A stretch of DNA of 64,000 nt, taken from NCBI GenBank assembly GCA_937995735.1, contig CALKIZ010000012.1:51404-115403 (forward strand), given 5' to 3'. Of this stretch, positions 7,907 through 24,011 are shown in pieces; position 1 is the stretch's first letter, and every line of letters starts with the position of its first letter. Below the pieces are notes generated by a model that was given only the letters and a program-made list of their open reading frames with translations, was not told the origin of the DNA and made no database searches. This DNA is from an uncultured Neomegalonema sp. (GTDB lineage Bacteria > Pseudomonadota > Alphaproteobacteria > Rhodobacterales > Rhodobacteraceae). The translations under genes and the position numbers were made by a program.

Positions 7907-8697
7907 GTATGCGAACCAGCGATTGGGCGCTGCGTGGATATGTGCTGTTGGTTTTTGTCTTCGTGTTCTCGCCCGTCGTGATGAGTATGATTTTCTCATT
8001 CAACTCGGATCGTTTTCCGACTATTCCTCTCGGCGGATTTACAACGCATTGGTATGAGACAATCTTTGCCGACGAAGATTTTTGGAAAGCCGCACAAAAC
8101 AGTTTGATTGTGTCTCTCTGTGCATCGCTGATCGCAACCTTCCTAGGGTTCTGCACTGCTTATTCCGACTATCGCTATACATTTCGCGGTCAAGGTGCGT
8201 ATCTCGGGATTATCTTGCTACCACCAACCATCCCATTGATCATCATGGCGCTTGCCATGCTCGCATGGTTCTCGAAAGTCGGCATATCGGGGCAAGTTTA
8301 TTCGATCATCTTTGCACACACCGTCCTTACTGCTCCCTTTGCCATGGCGATCATTAGATTGCGGCTCAACCAAATGGATGAAAGTTTAGAGGCCGCCGCT
8401 TGGAACCTTGGCGCAAGTGAATGGCGCGCAATGCGCGAAGTTATTCTTCCGTTTTGCTTACCCGCGATTGTCAGTTCGTTGTTTCTAACAGCCGCCGTTT
8501 CATTCGATGAATTTACGGTGGCTTGGTTTGTCTCTGGCTTGAATAAGACACTGCCAGTGCATGTGCTCGAAATCGTGCAAGGGACCATTGATCCACAAGT
8601 CAATGCAGTCGGGACATTAGTTTTTCTCGTCTCGATGACACTGGTGATCATAGCTCAACTCGCCATCTTCTTTCGACTGAACCGGAGTGCCAAATGA
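7903..8697 (+). CDS. ABC transporter permease (PotC-like)
   Basis: The in-frame ATG at 7903 (MSMRTSDWALRGYVLL...) avoids the out-of-frame overlap implied by the 7804 ORF start. It is a polytopic protein containing an EAA-like loop. Confidence 0.8.
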   Translation: MSMRTSDWALRGYVLLVFVFVFSPVVMSMIFSFNSDRFPTIPLGGFTTHWYETIFADEDFWKAAQNSLIVSLCASLIATFLGFCTAYSDYRYTFRGQGAYLGIILLPPTIPLIIMALAMLAWFSKVGISGQVYSIIFAHTVLTAPFAMAIIRLRLNQMDESLEAAAWNLGASEWRAMREVILPFCLPAIVSSLFLTAAVSFDEFTVAWFVSGLNKTLPVHVLEIVQGTIDPQVNAVGTLVFLVSMTLVIIAQLAIFFRLNRSAK

Positions 8698-9785
8698 ACG
8701 AACCATTGGTCGTACTAGATGGCGTGCAGAAAAATTTCGGTGATTTTTTCGCCGTGAAACGTGCCGATCTGACGATTGAGGCGGGCGAGTTCATTGCCAT
8801 TATGGGACCATCCGGGTGCGGAAAAACAACGACGTTGCGGATGCTTGCAGGGTTGGAAGCGCCGAGCGCTGGTGACATCCGCATCGGCGGCAAGCGCATG
8901 AACGACGTGCCTCCACATCAGCGCGACACCCCAATGGTCTGGCAAAGCCTCGCCCTGTTCCCGTTTCTCAATGTCCGAGAGAATGTCGAGTTCGGTTTAA
9001 AAATGCGCGGTGTGAGTACAGCCGAACGACGACGGCGAGCGTTTGATTGGATTGAACGCCTCGAGATTGGCGAGTTTGCCGAGCGCAATATTGAGACGCT
9101 TTCGGGCGGACAAAAACAGCGCGTCGCTCTTGCGCGCTCACTGATAACAGAACCACAATTATTGTTGCTTGATGAGCCGCTTTCGGCGCTCGACGCACAT
9201 CTCGTCATCCGTATGCAAGGGGTGTTGGCCCGCCTGCAAAGAGAGTTGGGGATTACATTTGTCTATGTGACCCACTCTCACTCAGAGGCTTTCGCGATGG
9301 CGGACCGCGTCGTGATCATGTCGCAAGGCGAAATCGCGCAAATCGGAAACCCGCGCGAGATTTATCGCACCCCCGCCAATCGCTTCGTTGCGGAGTTTGT
9401 GGGCCGCAATAACATTCTCACCGGCACAATAGAAAGCTCAGATACAGACCAAGTGACGATAAACTCTGTTATCGGCAATTTTTCTGCACCGACAGAGGGC
9501 ATTCACCAAGAACCGGGAAGCCTCGCAAGCATCGTCATTGCGGCGGATATGGTACGGATAACCCGCGAAGCCACCGATGCAGAAAACACTGTCGTAGCGA
9601 CGTTGATTTCAGAAGAGTTCGTCGGCTCTATCGTCACGCTATTTCTGGAGGCAGCGGACGGGACCGAGTTCAAAGTACAACTACAAGAACGCGCGTTAAC
9701 GGACCTTGATGTTCATGCTGGCGGTCAGTTTCATCTAAGCTGGGCAACAGCCGACGCACATCTTTTGCCGGAGAATAACGGATGA
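8694..9785 (+). CDS. ABC transporter ATP-binding protein (PotA-like, with C-terminal regulatory domain)
   Basis: Walker A GPSGCGKTT, signature LSGGQKQR and Walker B LLLLDEP are present. The C-terminal extension of about 120 aa resembles a TOBE domain. Confidence 0.9.
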   Translation: MNEPLVVLDGVQKNFGDFFAVKRADLTIEAGEFIAIMGPSGCGKTTTLRMLAGLEAPSAGDIRIGGKRMNDVPPHQRDTPMVWQSLALFPFLNVRENVEFGLKMRGVSTAERRRRAFDWIERLEIGEFAERNIETLSGGQKQRVALARSLITEPQLLLLDEPLSALDAHLVIRMQGVLARLQRELGITFVYVTHSHSEAFAMADRVVIMSQGEIAQIGNPREIYRTPANRFVAEFVGRNNILTGTIESSDTDQVTINSVIGNFSAPTEGIHQEPGSLASIVIAADMVRITREATDAENTVVATLISEEFVGSIVTLFLEAADGTEFKVQLQERALTDLDVHAGGQFHLSWATADAHLLPENNG

Positions 9786-16342: not shown

Positions 16343-16370
16343 ATGACAGTTTCACGACACTTATGTGACA
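16343..16370 (-). promoter_or_regulatory. Pho box: three TGTCAx direct repeats phased at 11 bp, upstream of pstS
   Basis: The minus strand reads TGTCACataagTGTCGTgaaacTGTCAT. The repeats start exactly 11 nt apart, 70-100 nt upstream of the pstS ATG. The element lies between the phoR stop codon (16390-16392) and the pstS start, inside the rejected N-terminal extension of the pstS track ORF. Confidence 0.7.
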
Positions 16371-16389: not shown

Positions 16390-17472
16390 TTATATCGGCA
16401 AACAGACAGTAAAAGTGCTGCCTTTTCCGACTTCACTCTCTATTTTGAGGCGGCCTCGGTGGTGTAGGATGATGTGTTTTACGATAGCCAAACCAAGGCC
16501 CGTTCCACCTTGACTGCGCGAACGGTGAGAATCGACGCGGTAAAATCGCTCAGTAAGCCGAGGCAAATGCTGCGGCGCGATACCATCCCCTATATCGGTA
16601 ACTCTGACTTCTACCGCAGGACCGGCAATGCCCACCGCACGCTGGCGTTTTGATAACTCCATCGCAACAACCGTTTTCGGCGCAGAATACTTGAGTGCGT
16701 TCTCGAGCAGGTTGCGAAAAACTTGCATTAATTCATCAGGATTTCCTGAGATTTCTTCGATAGGCTCAGACACAATCAAATCTATAGACTTCCCTTGTTC
16801 GCTTGCCTGATGTTCAAGAGCTTCTTGAACTTGCTTAGCGAGCGCAGTGATGTCCACGCGCGCATGTGGCACAGATCGCTCGTTCGCTTGAACCTTAGAC
16901 AAAGACAGCAGATCAGCAATCAAGCGAACCATTCGATCCGCCTCTTGTTCCATCAAGTCAAGAAACCGGACACGAGCTTTGGCATCGTCTTTAGCAGAGC
17001 CTTTCAATGTCTCGATGAAACCACTTATTGTCGATAATGGAGATCGCAGTTCATGGCTGACATTCGCAACAAAATCCGATCTCATCTCTTGAGCCAAAAG
17101 CACTTCGTTTATGTCGCGAAGGCTAATCAGCAATAAGTATTGACCGAGAGCGTCATCTTCAAACGGCGATACCTGAACGTCAAAGGGTCCATTTGCGGGT
17201 TCTCCAAAAACAATCGTTTGCTGCATCACTTCACGGCTTGCGAGCGCGGAGTCGATCAGTTCGATAAACTGCGGGTTACGGGTTAACTGAACAATATTTC
17301 TGCCTCGATTGTATTCACCAAACCGAACAGCAGCAGCGCGGTTCCCGAACACGACCTCGCGTAATTCGTTCAAGATCAGGACGGCTTCCTGAACAAAATC
17401 AAGGTGATCAAAGCGCTTTTCGACTATCACGGCACGTTCTCCGCTGTTTGCAAAATCGATATGCACGATCAA
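16390..17472 (-). CDS. phoR: phosphate regulon sensor histidine kinase PhoR (no transmembrane region)
   Basis: It has a PAS-like N-terminus, a DHp H-box (FVANVSHELRSPL) and a catalytic domain (GTGLGLAIVKHI). The reading frame closes at an in-frame TGA at 17548-17550, so no TM-encoding extension is possible. Confidence 0.85.
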   Translation of the reverse strand: MIVHIDFANSGERAVIVEKRFDHLDFVQEAVLILNELREVVFGNRAAAVRFGEYNRGRNIVQLTRNPQFIELIDSALASREVMQQTIVFGEPANGPFDVQVSPFEDDALGQYLLLISLRDINEVLLAQEMRSDFVANVSHELRSPLSTISGFIETLKGSAKDDAKARVRFLDLMEQEADRMVRLIADLLSLSKVQANERSVPHARVDITALAKQVQEALEHQASEQGKSIDLIVSEPIEEISGNPDELMQVFRNLLENALKYSAPKTVVAMELSKRQRAVGIAGPAVEVRVTDIGDGIAPQHLPRLTERFYRVDSHRSRSQGGTGLGLAIVKHIILHHRGRLKIESEVGKGSTFTVCLPI

Positions 17473-17559
17473 CAGGCATGAGTGAAAGCATTTTAAGAAA
17501 ATCCCGCAGTCTGTTGCAAAATTTGAAGATTTTTGAACATTGTACGTTCAATTTTGCTA

Positions 17560-17577
17560 TTGTCACATTGAAGTCAT
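17560..17577 (+). promoter_or_regulatory. Pho-box-like pair of direct repeats upstream of the repeat-protein gene
   Basis: TTGTCACattgAAGTCAT has two 7-mers 11 bp apart on the + strand. A TTTACT -10-like hexamer follows 9 nt downstream, then AGGAG and the ATG at 17620. Confidence 0.4.
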
Positions 17578-17619
17578 TTTTGTCCGTTTACTGACAGCCT
17601 CAAATTAGGAGTTCGAACC

Positions 17620-18729
17620 ATGCGCACTATCAAAGCTACTACTTTAGCCGTGTTGATTGCCGTACCCGGCGGCGTAAGCACTGTTTCAGCACAGCAAATC
17701 GATGCGACTCAAGCTATTGGCGGTGTCGTTGGTGCGGCTGCAGGCGGCCTTGTTGGCAACCAATTCGGCGGCGGCAGCGGCAGGACCGTCGCGACAATTG
17801 CCGGAGCGCTGGTTGGCGGCGTAGTCGGATCACAGGTCGCAAAGACCGTTGCGCCGAACTTCTATTCTGCCCAAGAGCCTTCCGGGTTCCAAACGCAGCA
17901 AGCGACCTATCAAACGCCATCAGCCTATCAAGGGCAAACTGCCTTCCAAACTCAGCAGACCGCCCTGCAAGCACCGGCTTCCTATCAGGGATTGACCACT
18001 TACCAGACAAGCCAGCCTACTTATCAAGCGCCATCTTCCTATCAAGGACAGACCGCTTTTGGGACGCAGCAAGCCGCTTATCAAGCACCGTCCACTTATC
18101 AGGGACAGACCGCTTTCGGAACGCAGCAAACCGCCTATCAAGCGCCGTCCTCCTATCAAGGACAGTCCGCTTTAGCTACGCAGCAAACCGCCTATCAAGC
18201 GCCATCTTCCTATCAAGGACAGACCGCTTTCGAAACGCAGCAAACTGCCTATCAAGCGCCGTCTTCCTATCAAGGACAGACCGCTTTCGAGGCGCAGCAA
18301 ACTGCCTATCAAGCGCCGTCGTCCTATCAAGGACAGACCGCTTTCGAGGCGCAGCAAACTGCCTATCAAGCGCCGTCTTCCTATCAAGGTCAGACCGCAT
18401 TCGAAACGCAGCAACCTACCTATCAAGCGCCGTCCAGCTATCAGGGACAAACTGCGTTCGGTACACAGCAACCTACCTATCAAGCGCCGTCTAGCTACCA
18501 AACACAGCAATCGGCTTTTTCTCAGGTTGAGCAGACGTATGCTACCCCAACATCGACGTACAATCAGTCGACAACTTATACGGCCCCGTCTGCACCATCC
18601 TATAACAGTTCATTTGCATCGGGTTCTGGTTCAACATATCAACCGGCAACTCGCCAAGTCGGAGCATATAGCAACAGTTCAGGTTCTACTTACGGTAGAT
18701 CAACAGCCGGGTCTTTCTACGGGAATTAA
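17620..18729 (+). CDS. secreted glycine-zipper protein with about 11 tandem 19-aa Q/Y/S/A/T-rich repeats
   Basis: It has a signal peptide (...VSTVSA|QQ) and a glycine zipper (GGVVGAAAGGLVGNQFGGGSGRTVATIAGALVGGVVG, of the 17-kDa antigen/SlyB type). Repeats of consensus TAFxTQQTAYQAPSSYQGQ follow. An AGGAG RBS precedes the gene and an intrinsic terminator follows it. Confidence 0.8.
   Translation: MRTIKATTLAVLIAVPGGVSTVSAQQIDATQAIGGVVGAAAGGLVGNQFGGGSGRTVATIAGALVGGVVGSQVAKTVAPNFYSAQEPSGFQTQQATYQTPSAYQGQTAFQTQQTALQAPASYQGLTTYQTSQPTYQAPSSYQGQTAFGTQQAAYQAPSTYQGQTAFGTQQTAYQAPSSYQGQSALATQQTAYQAPSSYQGQTAFETQQTAYQAPSSYQGQTAFEAQQTAYQAPSSYQGQTAFEAQQTAYQAPSSYQGQTAFETQQPTYQAPSSYQGQTAFGTQQPTYQAPSSYQTQQSAFSQVEQTYATPTSTYNQSTTYTAPSAPSYNSSFASGSGSTYQPATRQVGAYSNSSGSTYGRSTAGSFYGN
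17881..18510 (+). repeat. in-frame tandem repeat, 57-bp period, about 11 copies
   Basis: The unit cagcaaactgcctatcaagcgccgtcttcctatcaaggacagaccgctttcgaggcg recurs. The central copies (about 18170-18400) are almost identical at DNA level and the outer copies are degenerate. Confidence 0.9.
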
Positions 18730-18769
18730 GGCTGCCCTAACCTGACGGCTCTTTTGCAAAAATAATCAG

Positions 18770-18801
18770 GCCGCTATCATAATCGGATAGCGGCTTTTTT
18801 T
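18770..18801 (+). terminator. rho-independent terminator
   Basis: Stem GCCGCTATC/GATAGCGGC (9 bp, 7-nt loop) is followed by TTTTTTT, about 40 nt after the stop codon. Confidence 0.8.
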
Positions 18802-18857
18802 ATTGTCGAGAACATTGGGATTTCTAAACGTCTCTTGAGAACGGCTTACCCTAGAGA

Positions 18858-20021
18858 TCAATGCGCAGCGGGCCGTAAGTTCTCTGAATGGCTACTTGTA
18901 GTGCAGGTCAAAACACCAGCCATCTTCCAAAAAATAAGCGCCAAGACAAAACCGCCATACCCGTCAACGGCATAATGCCATCCAAGTAGAACCGATCCCA
19001 CCATAATCGCGGCAAAAAAGACCCACGCAGCGGCAGCTATAATCCAGTTCACACGGCTAGCATAAATTGCAATCAATGAGGCACTTGCAACATGCATGGA
19101 TGGAAATGCCGAGATACCCGCAGAGCCATTGCGCGCACCGGTATAGCCTTCCCACAACAATTCTTGCGTAGACAATGCCCATAATGGAACTGTTTCGGCG
19201 GCTTCGTAGAGGGAATTCATCATCGGCACATATTCAGCGCCATACCCGGCAAGTTCGTAAAATGCCGGACCAGCCGACGAGAAAATAATGGCGAGGAAAA
19301 ATCCACCGAATAACCAAGTCAGCGCGAAACTGACTAGATATTGCATATGCGCGCCTCGCCCGCGCATACCCGCAAGTAAGAGGCTGATGATAACGACGAC
19401 AAACCACGCATTATATATCAGATTGAATATACCCAAAATGGTAGGATGGTACATTAACGACCCAAACCACTCATGCGGTAACACTCCAAAGTGAAGTGCG
19501 ATATCCCAGTTCTTGAACGTTTCATCCCAAGCAAACGGGCTGATGATTGCAATCGCACCTTTCAACACGGAAAAGCCAGTTAAGAACAATGAAATCGAAA
19601 TCAACATATGAACTGAGTTCAGTATCGCTTCCCGGTCAAATATCTGTTTCGACCACTCAAGCAACGCTCCGCTAGCACTCACCGGTTTCTCTATCAATGC
19701 CATCCTCGCGAGCTTCCATCCAAGAACAATCGCGAGCACCAAAGTTAGCGAAATTCCGCAAAAATAAGTAAAGTTAATAACGACCCCAAAATCAGGCTTA
19801 TTTCCGCTAAAGTCAGAAACAGGAAACGAAAGCAAGAATGTAAATAACCCGAAGAAATAAAGCGTTATGTAATTCTTCGCAATACGAAGAGCATCCTCGA
19901 AAAACCGCAAACCTTCATTAGTACTTCCCGTATTTGCTATCGGATGGGTCAAGGTTAGCTCCTCACAAAGCATTGCCAATAAGGGCGCTGCCAACCGCAG
20001 CTCGAACCAGTGCAATATCAA
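18858..20021 (-). CDS. polytopic membrane protein with a PAP2_C / sphingomyelin-synthase-like C-terminal motif (paralogue 1)
   Basis: 387 aa with many TM segments. The C-terminal SAFPSMHVASA...GWHYAVDGYGG matches the S-x-H ... H-Y-x-x-D lipid-phosphate-transferase motifs. It is clearly homologous to 58976-60169. Confidence 0.6.
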   Translation of the reverse strand: MILHWFELRLAAPLLAMLCEELTLTHPIANTGSTNEGLRFFEDALRIAKNYITLYFFGLFTFLLSFPVSDFSGNKPDFGVVINFTYFCGISLTLVLAIVLGWKLARMALIEKPVSASGALLEWSKQIFDREAILNSVHMLISISLFLTGFSVLKGAIAIISPFAWDETFKNWDIALHFGVLPHEWFGSLMYHPTILGIFNLIYNAWFVVVIISLLLAGMRGRGAHMQYLVSFALTWLFGGFFLAIIFSSAGPAFYELAGYGAEYVPMMNSLYEAAETVPLWALSTQELLWEGYTGARNGSAGISAFPSMHVASASLIAIYASRVNWIIAAAAWVFFAAIMVGSVLLGWHYAVDGYGGFVLALIFWKMAGVLTCTTSSHSENLRPAAH

Positions 20022-23606: not shown

Positions 23607-24011
23607 TCAGTAGGTTTGAAAAACCTCTACGCCCACAGGCGCGACAAGATCACCACTGATAATGGTTTCATAAACAATACCATCAATCGTCTCGGATATG
23701 ATCGTGTTGCCTGATTGGTCTGTTGGTAATCCGGTTTCATAGGAGGAGCCAAAACCCGCTTCATAAGCGACCGGTGTTTCTTCATATGCCTGATAAGCGG
23801 TTTCTTGCAGTGCATACACGTTAGCGGTTTCTTCGATCCCTACCGAATCAACGTACCCGTAGGCAGGAGACGGCACATACTCATTATAAAATTGAGACTG
23901 CGCGCTGTTGTCGTAAATACCATTATTCGTGTATGTCGTCTCGGCGGATAAGCCAAAAGGAACATTCGCTACAAAAAATGCAGCACTGAAAACTGATGCG
24001 ATTTTACGCAT
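23607..24011 (-). CDS. small secreted acidic Tyr/Glu/Thr-rich protein, unknown function
   Basis: 134 aa with a signal peptide (MRKIASVFSAAFFVANVPFGLSA|E). The mature part is rich in Y, E, T, S and A. Confidence 0.55.
   Translation of the reverse strand: MRKIASVFSAAFFVANVPFGLSAETTYTNNGIYDNSAQSQFYNEYVPSPAYGYVDSVGIEETANVYALQETAYQAYEETPVAYEAGFGSSYETGLPTDQSGNTIISETIDGIVYETIISGDLVAPVGVEVFQTY

Follow-up and report, generated by a model that had tools for sequence, protein, structure and literature searches.

What does a bacterial protein do that consists, beyond a signal peptide and a short membrane hairpin, almost entirely of one 19-residue unit repeated in tandem? This question is raised by a gene at 17620-18729 (+ strand) of the window, by which we mean the whole 64,000-nucleotide stretch of DNA analysed here (contig CALKIZ010000012.1, positions 51,404 to 115,403). 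It is a genuine gene that looks expressed, carried by an uncultured marine alphaproteobacterium of Neomegalonema-like type (Rhodobacterales), and its product, here called the repeat protein, joins a glycine-zipper hairpin to a Gln/Tyr/Ser/Thr-rich tail whose units have been kept by selection in three species. Our tentative answer, to which we give a probability of roughly 0.45, is that a hairpin anchors the protein in a membrane while its low-complexity tail lies in the periplasm and self-associates, with possible regulation of the gene by the Pho system.

Signal peptide, hairpin and repeat array

The N-terminus of the repeat protein reads MRTIKATTLAVLIAVPGGVSTVSA, followed by QQ, and an n-region (MRTIK), an h-region (ATTLAVLIAV) and a c-region (PGGVSTVSA) can be recognized in it by eye. 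Cleavage is predicted after VSA, at the end of residues 1-24 (17620..17691, + strand), suggesting that the protein carries a Sec signal peptide of the cleavable type. Across the three orthologues described below, differences within the signal peptide are confined to conservative changes in the h-region, and mature residues 25-75 do not differ at all between the species. The composition of the whole protein includes no Cys, His or Trp; a lipobox is thus absent and, having no Cys, the repeat protein is not a lipoprotein.

Residues 33-73 (17716..17838, + strand) match PF05433 (Rick_17kDa_Anti) with an E-value of 7.5e-10, scoring 39 bits where the cut-off is 24.2 and spanning positions 1-42 of the 43 in the model, and are predicted to form a glycine-zipper hairpin of two transmembrane helices. 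The two Gly/Ala-rich GxxxG helices are joined by a short Gly-rich loop, AIGGVVGAAAGGLVGNQF-GGGSGR-TVATIAGALVGGVVGSQVA. In a phmmer search residues 19-75 aligned to the hairpin of E. coli SlyB, residues 48-104, in PDB entry 7ojf (E 3e-7), and AlphaFold2 placed helices at residues 29-48 and 54-81, with low confidence. Collectively, these matches point to a hairpin of the SlyB/17-kDa-antigen type that is invariant across the three species.

Beyond the hairpin, Tandem Repeats Finder reported one array at 17887-18492 with a period of 57 bp (10.6 copies, 81% matches, no indels, score 671). An in-register, in-frame parse divides residues 88-296 (17881..18507, + strand) into eleven tandem units of 57 bp, or 19 amino acids (aa), in agreement with the roughly 11 units counted in a preliminary description of this DNA. 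The unit consensus, TAF(E/Q/G)TQQ(T/P)(A/T)YQAPSSYQGQ, itself resolves into three sub-repeats of 7, 6 and 6 residues (TAFETQQ, TAYQAP and SSYQGQ), which share the form (T/S)(A/S)(F/Y)Q.. and each carry an aromatic residue at position 3. The central units had been called nearly identical, and units 5, 7, 8 and 9 do share 89-96% of their DNA sequence, with values of 60-77% for the units at the edges. The array gives way to a degenerate, non-periodic Tyr/Ser/Thr-rich C-terminal end of 73 aa (18508..18726, + strand), which contains (S/T)xY motifs with aromatics spaced 4-10 residues apart and ends in GSFYGN.

Taken as a whole, the tail (residues 82-369) is composed of Q 21.9%, T 14.9%, A 14.6%, S 13.9%, Y 10.8%, G 7.3%, P 6.6% and F 4.2%, so that S and T together make up 28.8%, Y and F 15%, and charged residues 2.8%. 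The earlier statement that it holds no charged or large aliphatic residues is nearly but not strictly right, given that six Glu, two Arg and five Leu or Val occur among its 288 residues. Aromatics recur every 6-7 residues along the array, and their spacing has a standard deviation of 2.06 compared with 5.71 at random; none of 10,000 shuffles was equally regular. The tail has the prion-like composition that the preliminary description recognized in it, here of the FET type, being nearly uncharged, polar, rich in Q, S, G and T and set with evenly placed aromatics, where FET-type denotes a compositional class and no shared descent. The repeat region had no match to any Pfam family even at E <= 10, Curlin_rpt and Hexapep included, and the C-terminal 73 residues alone had no homologue in a word-indexed search of 5.8 billion proteins. 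Only the hairpin matches known families, which speaks against membership of the repeats in a well-characterised one, an outcome that the preliminary description had itself considered.

Orthologues, selection and upstream region

We searched for orthologues by scanning one genome per GTDB species and then by tracing homologues of the neighbouring PAP2 gene to their contigs. The species scan gave a single orthologue, at locus L001 (CALKBI010000012.1), from a metagenome-assembled genome of an uncultured Neomegalonema sp., a genus placed in Rhodobacterales, family Neomegalonemataceae. This locus is ~89.5% identical to the window over 17 kb and shares the same slot, with the order pstC<pstS<phoR-like kinase <-> gene -> PAP2 <- HAD <- rluC. 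Its product has 439 aa with 14 canonical units and one degenerate unit, and its array (8288-9061) has a super-period of 171 bp, or three units (score 902 versus 766 for period 57), which points to duplication of three-unit blocks, unlike the single-unit near-identity seen in the window. The third orthologue, found by the PAP2 route (L002/L007, ENA ERZ6863655), encodes 401 aa with 12 units and one degenerate unit, occupies this slot as well (kinase <-> gene -> PAP2 <- HAD) and is 83-87% identical to the window at the DNA level. Overall, the orthologous loci show 83-90% nucleotide identity and represent two other species-level lineages of a Neomegalonema-like clade.

The products of L002 and L001 differ in length by 38 residues (2 units), and those of the window and L001 by 70 residues (3 units and a 13-residue indel). 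Unit number therefore differs by species (11, 12 or 14) through in-frame gain or loss of 57-bp units or of three-unit blocks, and the copy-number variation anticipated for this gene is thus seen between species-level relatives. In L007 (2305-3510, protein P0275), Lys replaces the conserved Gln at unit position 7 (ETQK) in three units, two of which are 98% identical, suggesting a recent duplicate that brings positive charge into an otherwise uncharged tail. Sequences from X3, an aquatic metagenome of another study, and from minor strains in run X2 cover N- and C-terminal parts of the gene at ~82-89% identity, and these divergent contigs indicate that more variants of the gene exist. Over window positions 17400-18900, runs X2 and X3 contain several co-occurring gene variants at differing depths and 82-99% identity; their short-read contigs all end inside the array, and apparent 'skips' of 346-380 bases could be shorter alleles or repeat misalignments.

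Sequence divergence argues that this array is maintained as protein. Between the window and L001, the proportions of nonsynonymous (pN) and synonymous (pS) differences are 0.040 and 0.439 over the N-terminal 87 codons and 0.114 and 0.537 over the C-terminal 73-74 codons. Among units, compared within and between genomes, pS is 0.39-0.57 and pN 0.09-0.15, giving pN/pS of 0.17-0.29, and the ratio is far under 1 in all parts of the coding sequence. When all 37 units of the three species were aligned, Q11, P13 and Y16 were invariant, each of F3, T5, Q6, Q7, Y10, S14, S15, Q17, G18 and Q19 was kept in 33-36 of 37, and positions 4, 8 and 9 were variable. Ser15 is written with both TCN and AGY codons. 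Together, the low pN/pS, the conserved positions and the mixed Ser15 codons show that the peptide is maintained and not just the DNA repeat, and we read the tail of 288-358 residues as built of 19-aa units under purifying selection.

The relationships among units are informative about the age of the array. Units 1 and 2 are positional orthologues in all three arrays (W1/L1/B1, 84-89%), as is unit 3 in L001 and L002 (B3/L3, 95%), and central units most resemble neighbouring units of the same array (W7-W9, 95-96%; B4-B8, 98%; L8-L11, 95%). The array as a whole is old, and its middle has seen duplication and loss specific to each lineage. The recent expansion proposed at the outset accordingly holds for a few central units and not for the array, whose synonymous divergence is ~0.4-0.57 and which bears the marks of purifying selection.

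The coding sequence comprises 369 aa and a stop codon, as given by the list of open reading frames (ORFs) and by the syntenic orthologues. A ribosome-binding site, AGGAG, lies 8 nt 5' of the ATG (17607..17611, + strand) and is the same in all three orthologous loci, and 3' of the stop codon stands a predicted intrinsic terminator (18768..18803, + strand) with an 11-bp stem, a 7-nt loop and a run of seven T. Its folding energy is -17.6 kcal/mol (z -5.45); the L001 terminator keeps the stem, has an altered loop and reaches -23.8 kcal/mol. The ORF, signal peptide, SlyB/17-kDa-type glycine zipper, ribosome-binding site and strong terminator had all been listed beforehand, and each of them was recovered. 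Long stop-free ORFs rich in Arg, Leu and Ser also run opposite the array, at 18172-18510 (- strand, 112 aa) in the window and at 8373-9101 (- strand, 242 aa) in L001. We rejected these opposite-strand ORFs as genes; they are by-products of a stop-free repeat and carry a risk of gene miscalls.

Searches for further members gave little. With the whole protein as query, the word-indexed search of 5.8 billion proteins returned just four weak glycine-zipper matches, and a full HMMER search of 1.84 billion representatives returned 1439 matches (best 69 bits), all of them hairpin-only or chance low-complexity matches. Both searches undercount, the collection containing neither the window protein nor its two orthologues (an exact look-up of the window protein failed too). 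Two scans of JGI metagenomes, one with the single protein and one with an alignment, found no match. The family is rare in what is indexed, and these negatives are weak evidence.

The repeat gene is divergent from phoR-pstSC, and its neighbours encode a histidine kinase, a PAP2 enzyme and a HAD hydrolase. The 148-bp divergent intergenic region (window 17473-17619; L001 7854-8000; L007 2116-2304) is 92-94% identical across the three species, compared with a synonymous divergence of ~0.44-0.54 in the same species, and its sole freely varying patch consists of 7 nt near 17596-17602. Such conservation in the aligned sequences implies dense regulatory information shared by the kinase gene and the repeat gene. 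Reading the region by eye, we noted a Pho-box-like direct repeat, TTGTCAC-ATTG-AAGTCAT (17560..17577, + strand), which is oriented to the repeat gene and presents two TGTCAY hexamers in 11-bp phase, as in the triple array upstream of pstS. Its first half-site is invariant in the three species. A loose pattern matches nowhere else in the window, but as the pattern was built from that very site, this test is circular. PhoB control of the repeat gene is plausible but unproven. The array upstream of pstS (16343-16370, - strand), situated in the stretch that separates the end of the phoR-like gene from pstS and oriented to pstS, holds TGTCAC, TGTCGT and TGTCAT hexamers in exact 11-bp phase; by its sequence it looks like a textbook Pho-box array and served as the yardstick for the candidate. 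On the minus strand, the phoR-like kinase gene has a sigma-70-like promoter, GTGACA-16-TACAAT, at 17566-17539.

On the other side of the repeat gene, the PAP2_3 gene (18858-20021, - strand) has two kinds of relatives. Those in L001 and L002 are syntenic with the repeat gene; the others lie beside an acyltransferase-3 gene (L003, L005) or upstream of lepA (L004), in a different neighbourhood from which the repeat gene is absent, and the contig of a further match (L006) is too short to show neighbours. A second Tyr-rich ORF, which the preliminary description had mentioned alongside the repeat gene, does exist at 23607-24011 (- strand) as an acidic protein of 134 aa with a signal-peptide-like start and no match in Pfam or NCBIfam. 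Of the two orthologous loci only L001 reaches that far, and its syntenic site lacks the ORF: a mere ~70 bp separate the tartrate-dehydrogenase-like gene from the PLP-enzyme gene there. This absence suggests a lineage-specific insertion or loss that is unlinked to the repeat gene, and nothing ties the two together.

A proposed role and its rivals

From the features above we infer the localisation, assembly and regulation of the repeat protein. After Sec export and cleavage, the hairpin would insert and oligomerise in a membrane of the envelope, for which the outer membrane is the likeliest candidate if SlyB is a guide, and both termini would remain periplasmic. A membrane hairpin places both termini on the side of entry, which makes the tail most likely periplasmic and not an external adhesin; the protein described earlier as secreted is therefore secreted in the sense of Sec export by its signal peptide, and probably not beyond. 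By its composition, the nearly uncharged tail with an aromatic every 6-7 positions would act as a multivalent, self-associating low-complexity domain. Tails clustered by oligomerisation could associate through these spaced aromatics into a cohesive layer beneath the membrane, gel-like or beta-rich in nature, and the number of units would set their valence and reach. CsgF provides a precedent for an envelope protein with condensate behaviour (PMC10133297). Phosphate limitation may induce the gene, and its product would then serve as an envelope-stabilising factor. The ring-forming glycine-zipper protein SlyB offers a parallel, as an outer-membrane stabiliser of stressed membrane patches that is induced by envelope stress (PMC13067283), and YfgH, likewise ring-forming and induced by envelope stress, has been proposed to act like SlyB (bioRxiv 10.64898/2025.12.22.696046).

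Several observations weigh against this proposal. The hairpin helices are just moderately hydrophobic (mean Kyte-Doolittle 1.2-1.5), and, with no lipobox, the Lol route that SlyB takes to the outer membrane is not open to the repeat protein. Self-association of the tail is deduced from its composition, and in several relatives a Tyr/Gln/Pro-rich stretch serves as a linker from the hairpin to a C-terminal Cys-containing domain; a passive spacer is a role that the tail here could have too. The repeat gene was matched in no RNA run searched. As for Pho control, the second half-site differs in its last 2 nt (AGTCGC in the other two species), and the first overlaps the -35 element of the divergent kinase-gene promoter. 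A bolder version, in which SlyB-like hairpin rings hang dense FET-like or FG-like tails into the periplasm and form a gel or selective phase beneath outer-membrane patches, switched by phosphate starvation and sized by a 57-bp repeat counter, strikes us as a long shot. If true, it would amount to a membrane-anchored condensate of prion-like domains in the bacterial periplasm.

Could the array, or its copy number, instead be an artefact of assembly, or the gene a low-complexity expansion that is decaying and without function? For X1, the run that covers the locus best, Logan k=31 contigs match the window exactly but stop inside the array (18051-18414), and k=31 contigs break there in every run; X1 is probably the source sample, and hence not independent support. 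The exact count of central units is thus that of the assembly. Yet the longest exact internal repeat is 56 bp, which brings the array within reach of k-mers longer than 57, and in-frame arrays with common flanks and positionally orthologous first units occur in three separate assemblies. With the pN/pS of 0.17-0.29 and the conserved ribosome-binding site, promoter region and terminator, this makes an artefact, which the preliminary description had allowed for, or a decaying gene very improbable. A more substantial rival holds that the repeats fold into a beta-solenoid or a functional-amyloid-like rod, with one 19-residue rung per unit. Such a rod would have three sides bearing one aromatic each (positions 3, 10 and 16) and ladders of Gln, and at ~0.48 nm per unit would measure 5-7 nm for 11-14 units. 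AlphaFold2 modelled the full protein (mean pLDDT 48.9) as a helical hairpin with periodic beta structure in the repeats (pLDDT 55-68), and a run on only the repeats, for which shifted orthologous arrays supplied the alignment, gave pLDDT 64.2, pTM 0.51 and again a beta period of 19 residues. A triangular coil would accommodate the 7+6+6 sub-repeats, each with its own aromatic, P13 and G18, invariant or nearly so, would suit its corners, and curli subunits also vary widely in repeat number (PMC10192328). Foldseek returned only left-handed beta-helices, which have 18 residues per turn, but none was significant (E >= 0.013, best 0.013-0.023; TM-score <= 0.23; root-mean-square deviation ~12 A). 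AlphaFold2 is moreover documented to yield unrealistic beta-solenoids for near-perfect repeats (PMC11795689), and with confidence below 70 and no significant Foldseek match we rejected the modelled solenoid as evidence and kept it as a rival hypothesis. The tail also offers hardly any aliphatic residues (5 of 288) with which a core could be filled, the curli and hexapeptide families are unmatched as noted above, and genes for curli-type secretion were not found nearby; on balance we consider a solenoid unlikely. Readings of the repeats as curli, hexapeptide-repeat or ice-binding proteins or as carriers of a sorting signal were rejected, there being no family match, no TxT motif and no C-terminal hydrophobic segment.

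The passive spacer deserves similar attention: in this case the tail would be a disordered brush, an expanded Tyr/Gln/Pro-rich linker that lacks both the 17-kDa-antigen domain and specific self-association. The closest relatives of the hairpin, which consist of hairpin, linker and PF16998 or a Cys-containing domain and can have long Y/Q/P-rich linkers (P0096 and P0011, for example), agree with it, as does the freedom with which unit number changes between species. A spacer should tolerate substitutions, however, yet ~11 of 19 positions are nearly invariant over 37 units despite a synonymous divergence of ~0.5, and the non-repeat C-terminal 73 residues are conserved too, so that we hold this explanation to be doubtful. 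The Tyr/Gln/Ser/Thr-rich tail, the marine habitat of the organism and a copy-number variation typical of surface proteins would also be in keeping with the adhesive reading of the preliminary description, in the form of a released or surface-exposed adhesive or matrix protein, possibly with Tyr cross-linking or Ser/Thr O-glycosylation. Against this stand the hairpin that holds both ends on the side of entry, the absence of a secretion system, a sortase-type or beta-barrel signal and a dedicated neighbour gene (the neighbours being those for the kinase, the PAP2 enzyme and the HAD hydrolase), and the lack of a tyrosinase or peroxidase among the adjacent genes, the remaining window having been scanned for composition only. 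We regard an adhesive role as improbable, and the membrane-anchored hairpin with a self-associating periplasmic tail as the best reading so far.

Comparison with known systems

The GxxxG hairpin is common to the repeat protein and to SlyB/Pcp and YfgH, outer-membrane lipoproteins of Enterobacteria (PF05433; PDB 7ojf, 7ojg). The likeness to SlyB is limited to the hairpin (SlyB residues 48-104 of 155): the SlyB C-terminal domain is absent from the repeat protein, which is 2-3 times as long as SlyB and has a repeat tail of 290-360 residues that SlyB lacks. Proteins of the SlyB, YfgH and OsmB type are lipoproteins, whereas the signal peptide here ends in VSA followed by QQ, with neither lipobox nor Cys. 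SlyB is under two-component control and forms ring-shaped transmembrane oligomers (PMC13067283); the repeat gene adjoins a two-component kinase gene. SlyB and YfgH have only recently been recognized as ring-forming outer-membrane stabilisers, and their numerous relatives outside Enterobacteria that are not lipoproteins have gone unstudied.

The best hairpin matches in the search of 1.84 billion proteins were the 17-kDa antigen (PF05433 with PF16998) and E. coli YcfJ. Compared with the 17-kDa-antigen architecture, the repeat protein has no PF16998 domain (none at E <= 0.1) and no Cys pair, whereas its relatives P0010 and P0013 do have PF16998. Against the YcfJ equivalog model (NCBIfam NF008437) it scores 54 bits, over the hairpin only, with a cut-off of 99, which places it outside that family. 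The low-complexity part of 17-kDa and YcfJ-type proteins is short and non-periodic, in contrast to the selected 19-aa tandem array found here.

The composition of the tail, which the preliminary description had thought unusual for bacteria, proved less so, as Tyr/Gln/Pro-rich stretches after glycine zippers recur in unrelated bacteria. Of the 154 best glycine-zipper matches, 13 contain a 40-residue segment with Q+Y at 35% or more immediately behind the hairpin, in a ranking biased to Q/Y-rich relatives because the query's own tail adds to the score. A Tyr/Gln/Pro-rich segment directly follows the hairpin in the unrelated proteins P0033 (QYQPQY...), P0088, P0059, P0096 and P0011, and in the last two it joins the hairpin to a C-terminal Cys-containing domain. 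The combination of hairpin and Tyr/Gln/Pro-rich segment recurs across bacteria and appears to be without name or study, and the repeat protein is an unusually regular, expanded form of this architecture. The repeat gene thereby offers a very regular case of a hairpin with a Tyr/Gln-rich tail, under selection and with a natural valence of 11, 12 or 14 units. Should the tail self-associate, it would provide a natural model for aromatic "stickers" in the periplasm, which has no ATP or chaperone-driven remodelling, and could show how tail length tunes envelope architecture; should it be a passive spacer, the protein would be an ordinary lineage-specific envelope protein.

Two further classes resemble the tail in its repeats or composition. 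CsgA and other functional amyloids are also exported, with Gln-rich repeats of ~19-23 residues whose number varies widely by species (PMC10192328), but the repeat protein shows no Curlin_rpt match at E <= 10, no N-psi-psi-Q motif of an aliphatic core and no csgBEFG-like neighbours, and is tethered by a hairpin instead. Nor does it show a significant structural or sequence match to the left-handed beta-helix of hexapeptide repeats. The prion-like domains of FET-type proteins (FUS, EWSR1) follow a sticker-and-spacer pattern, with degenerate hexapeptide repeats of the SYGQQS type in EWSR1. Compared by composition, these domains and the repeat tail share a nearly uncharged tract rich in Q, S, T, G, A and P with regularly placed Tyr or Phe, into which SSYQGQ, TAYQAP and TAFETQQ all fit; the repeat protein differs in being bacterial, exported, membrane-anchored, unrelated by descent and far more regular.

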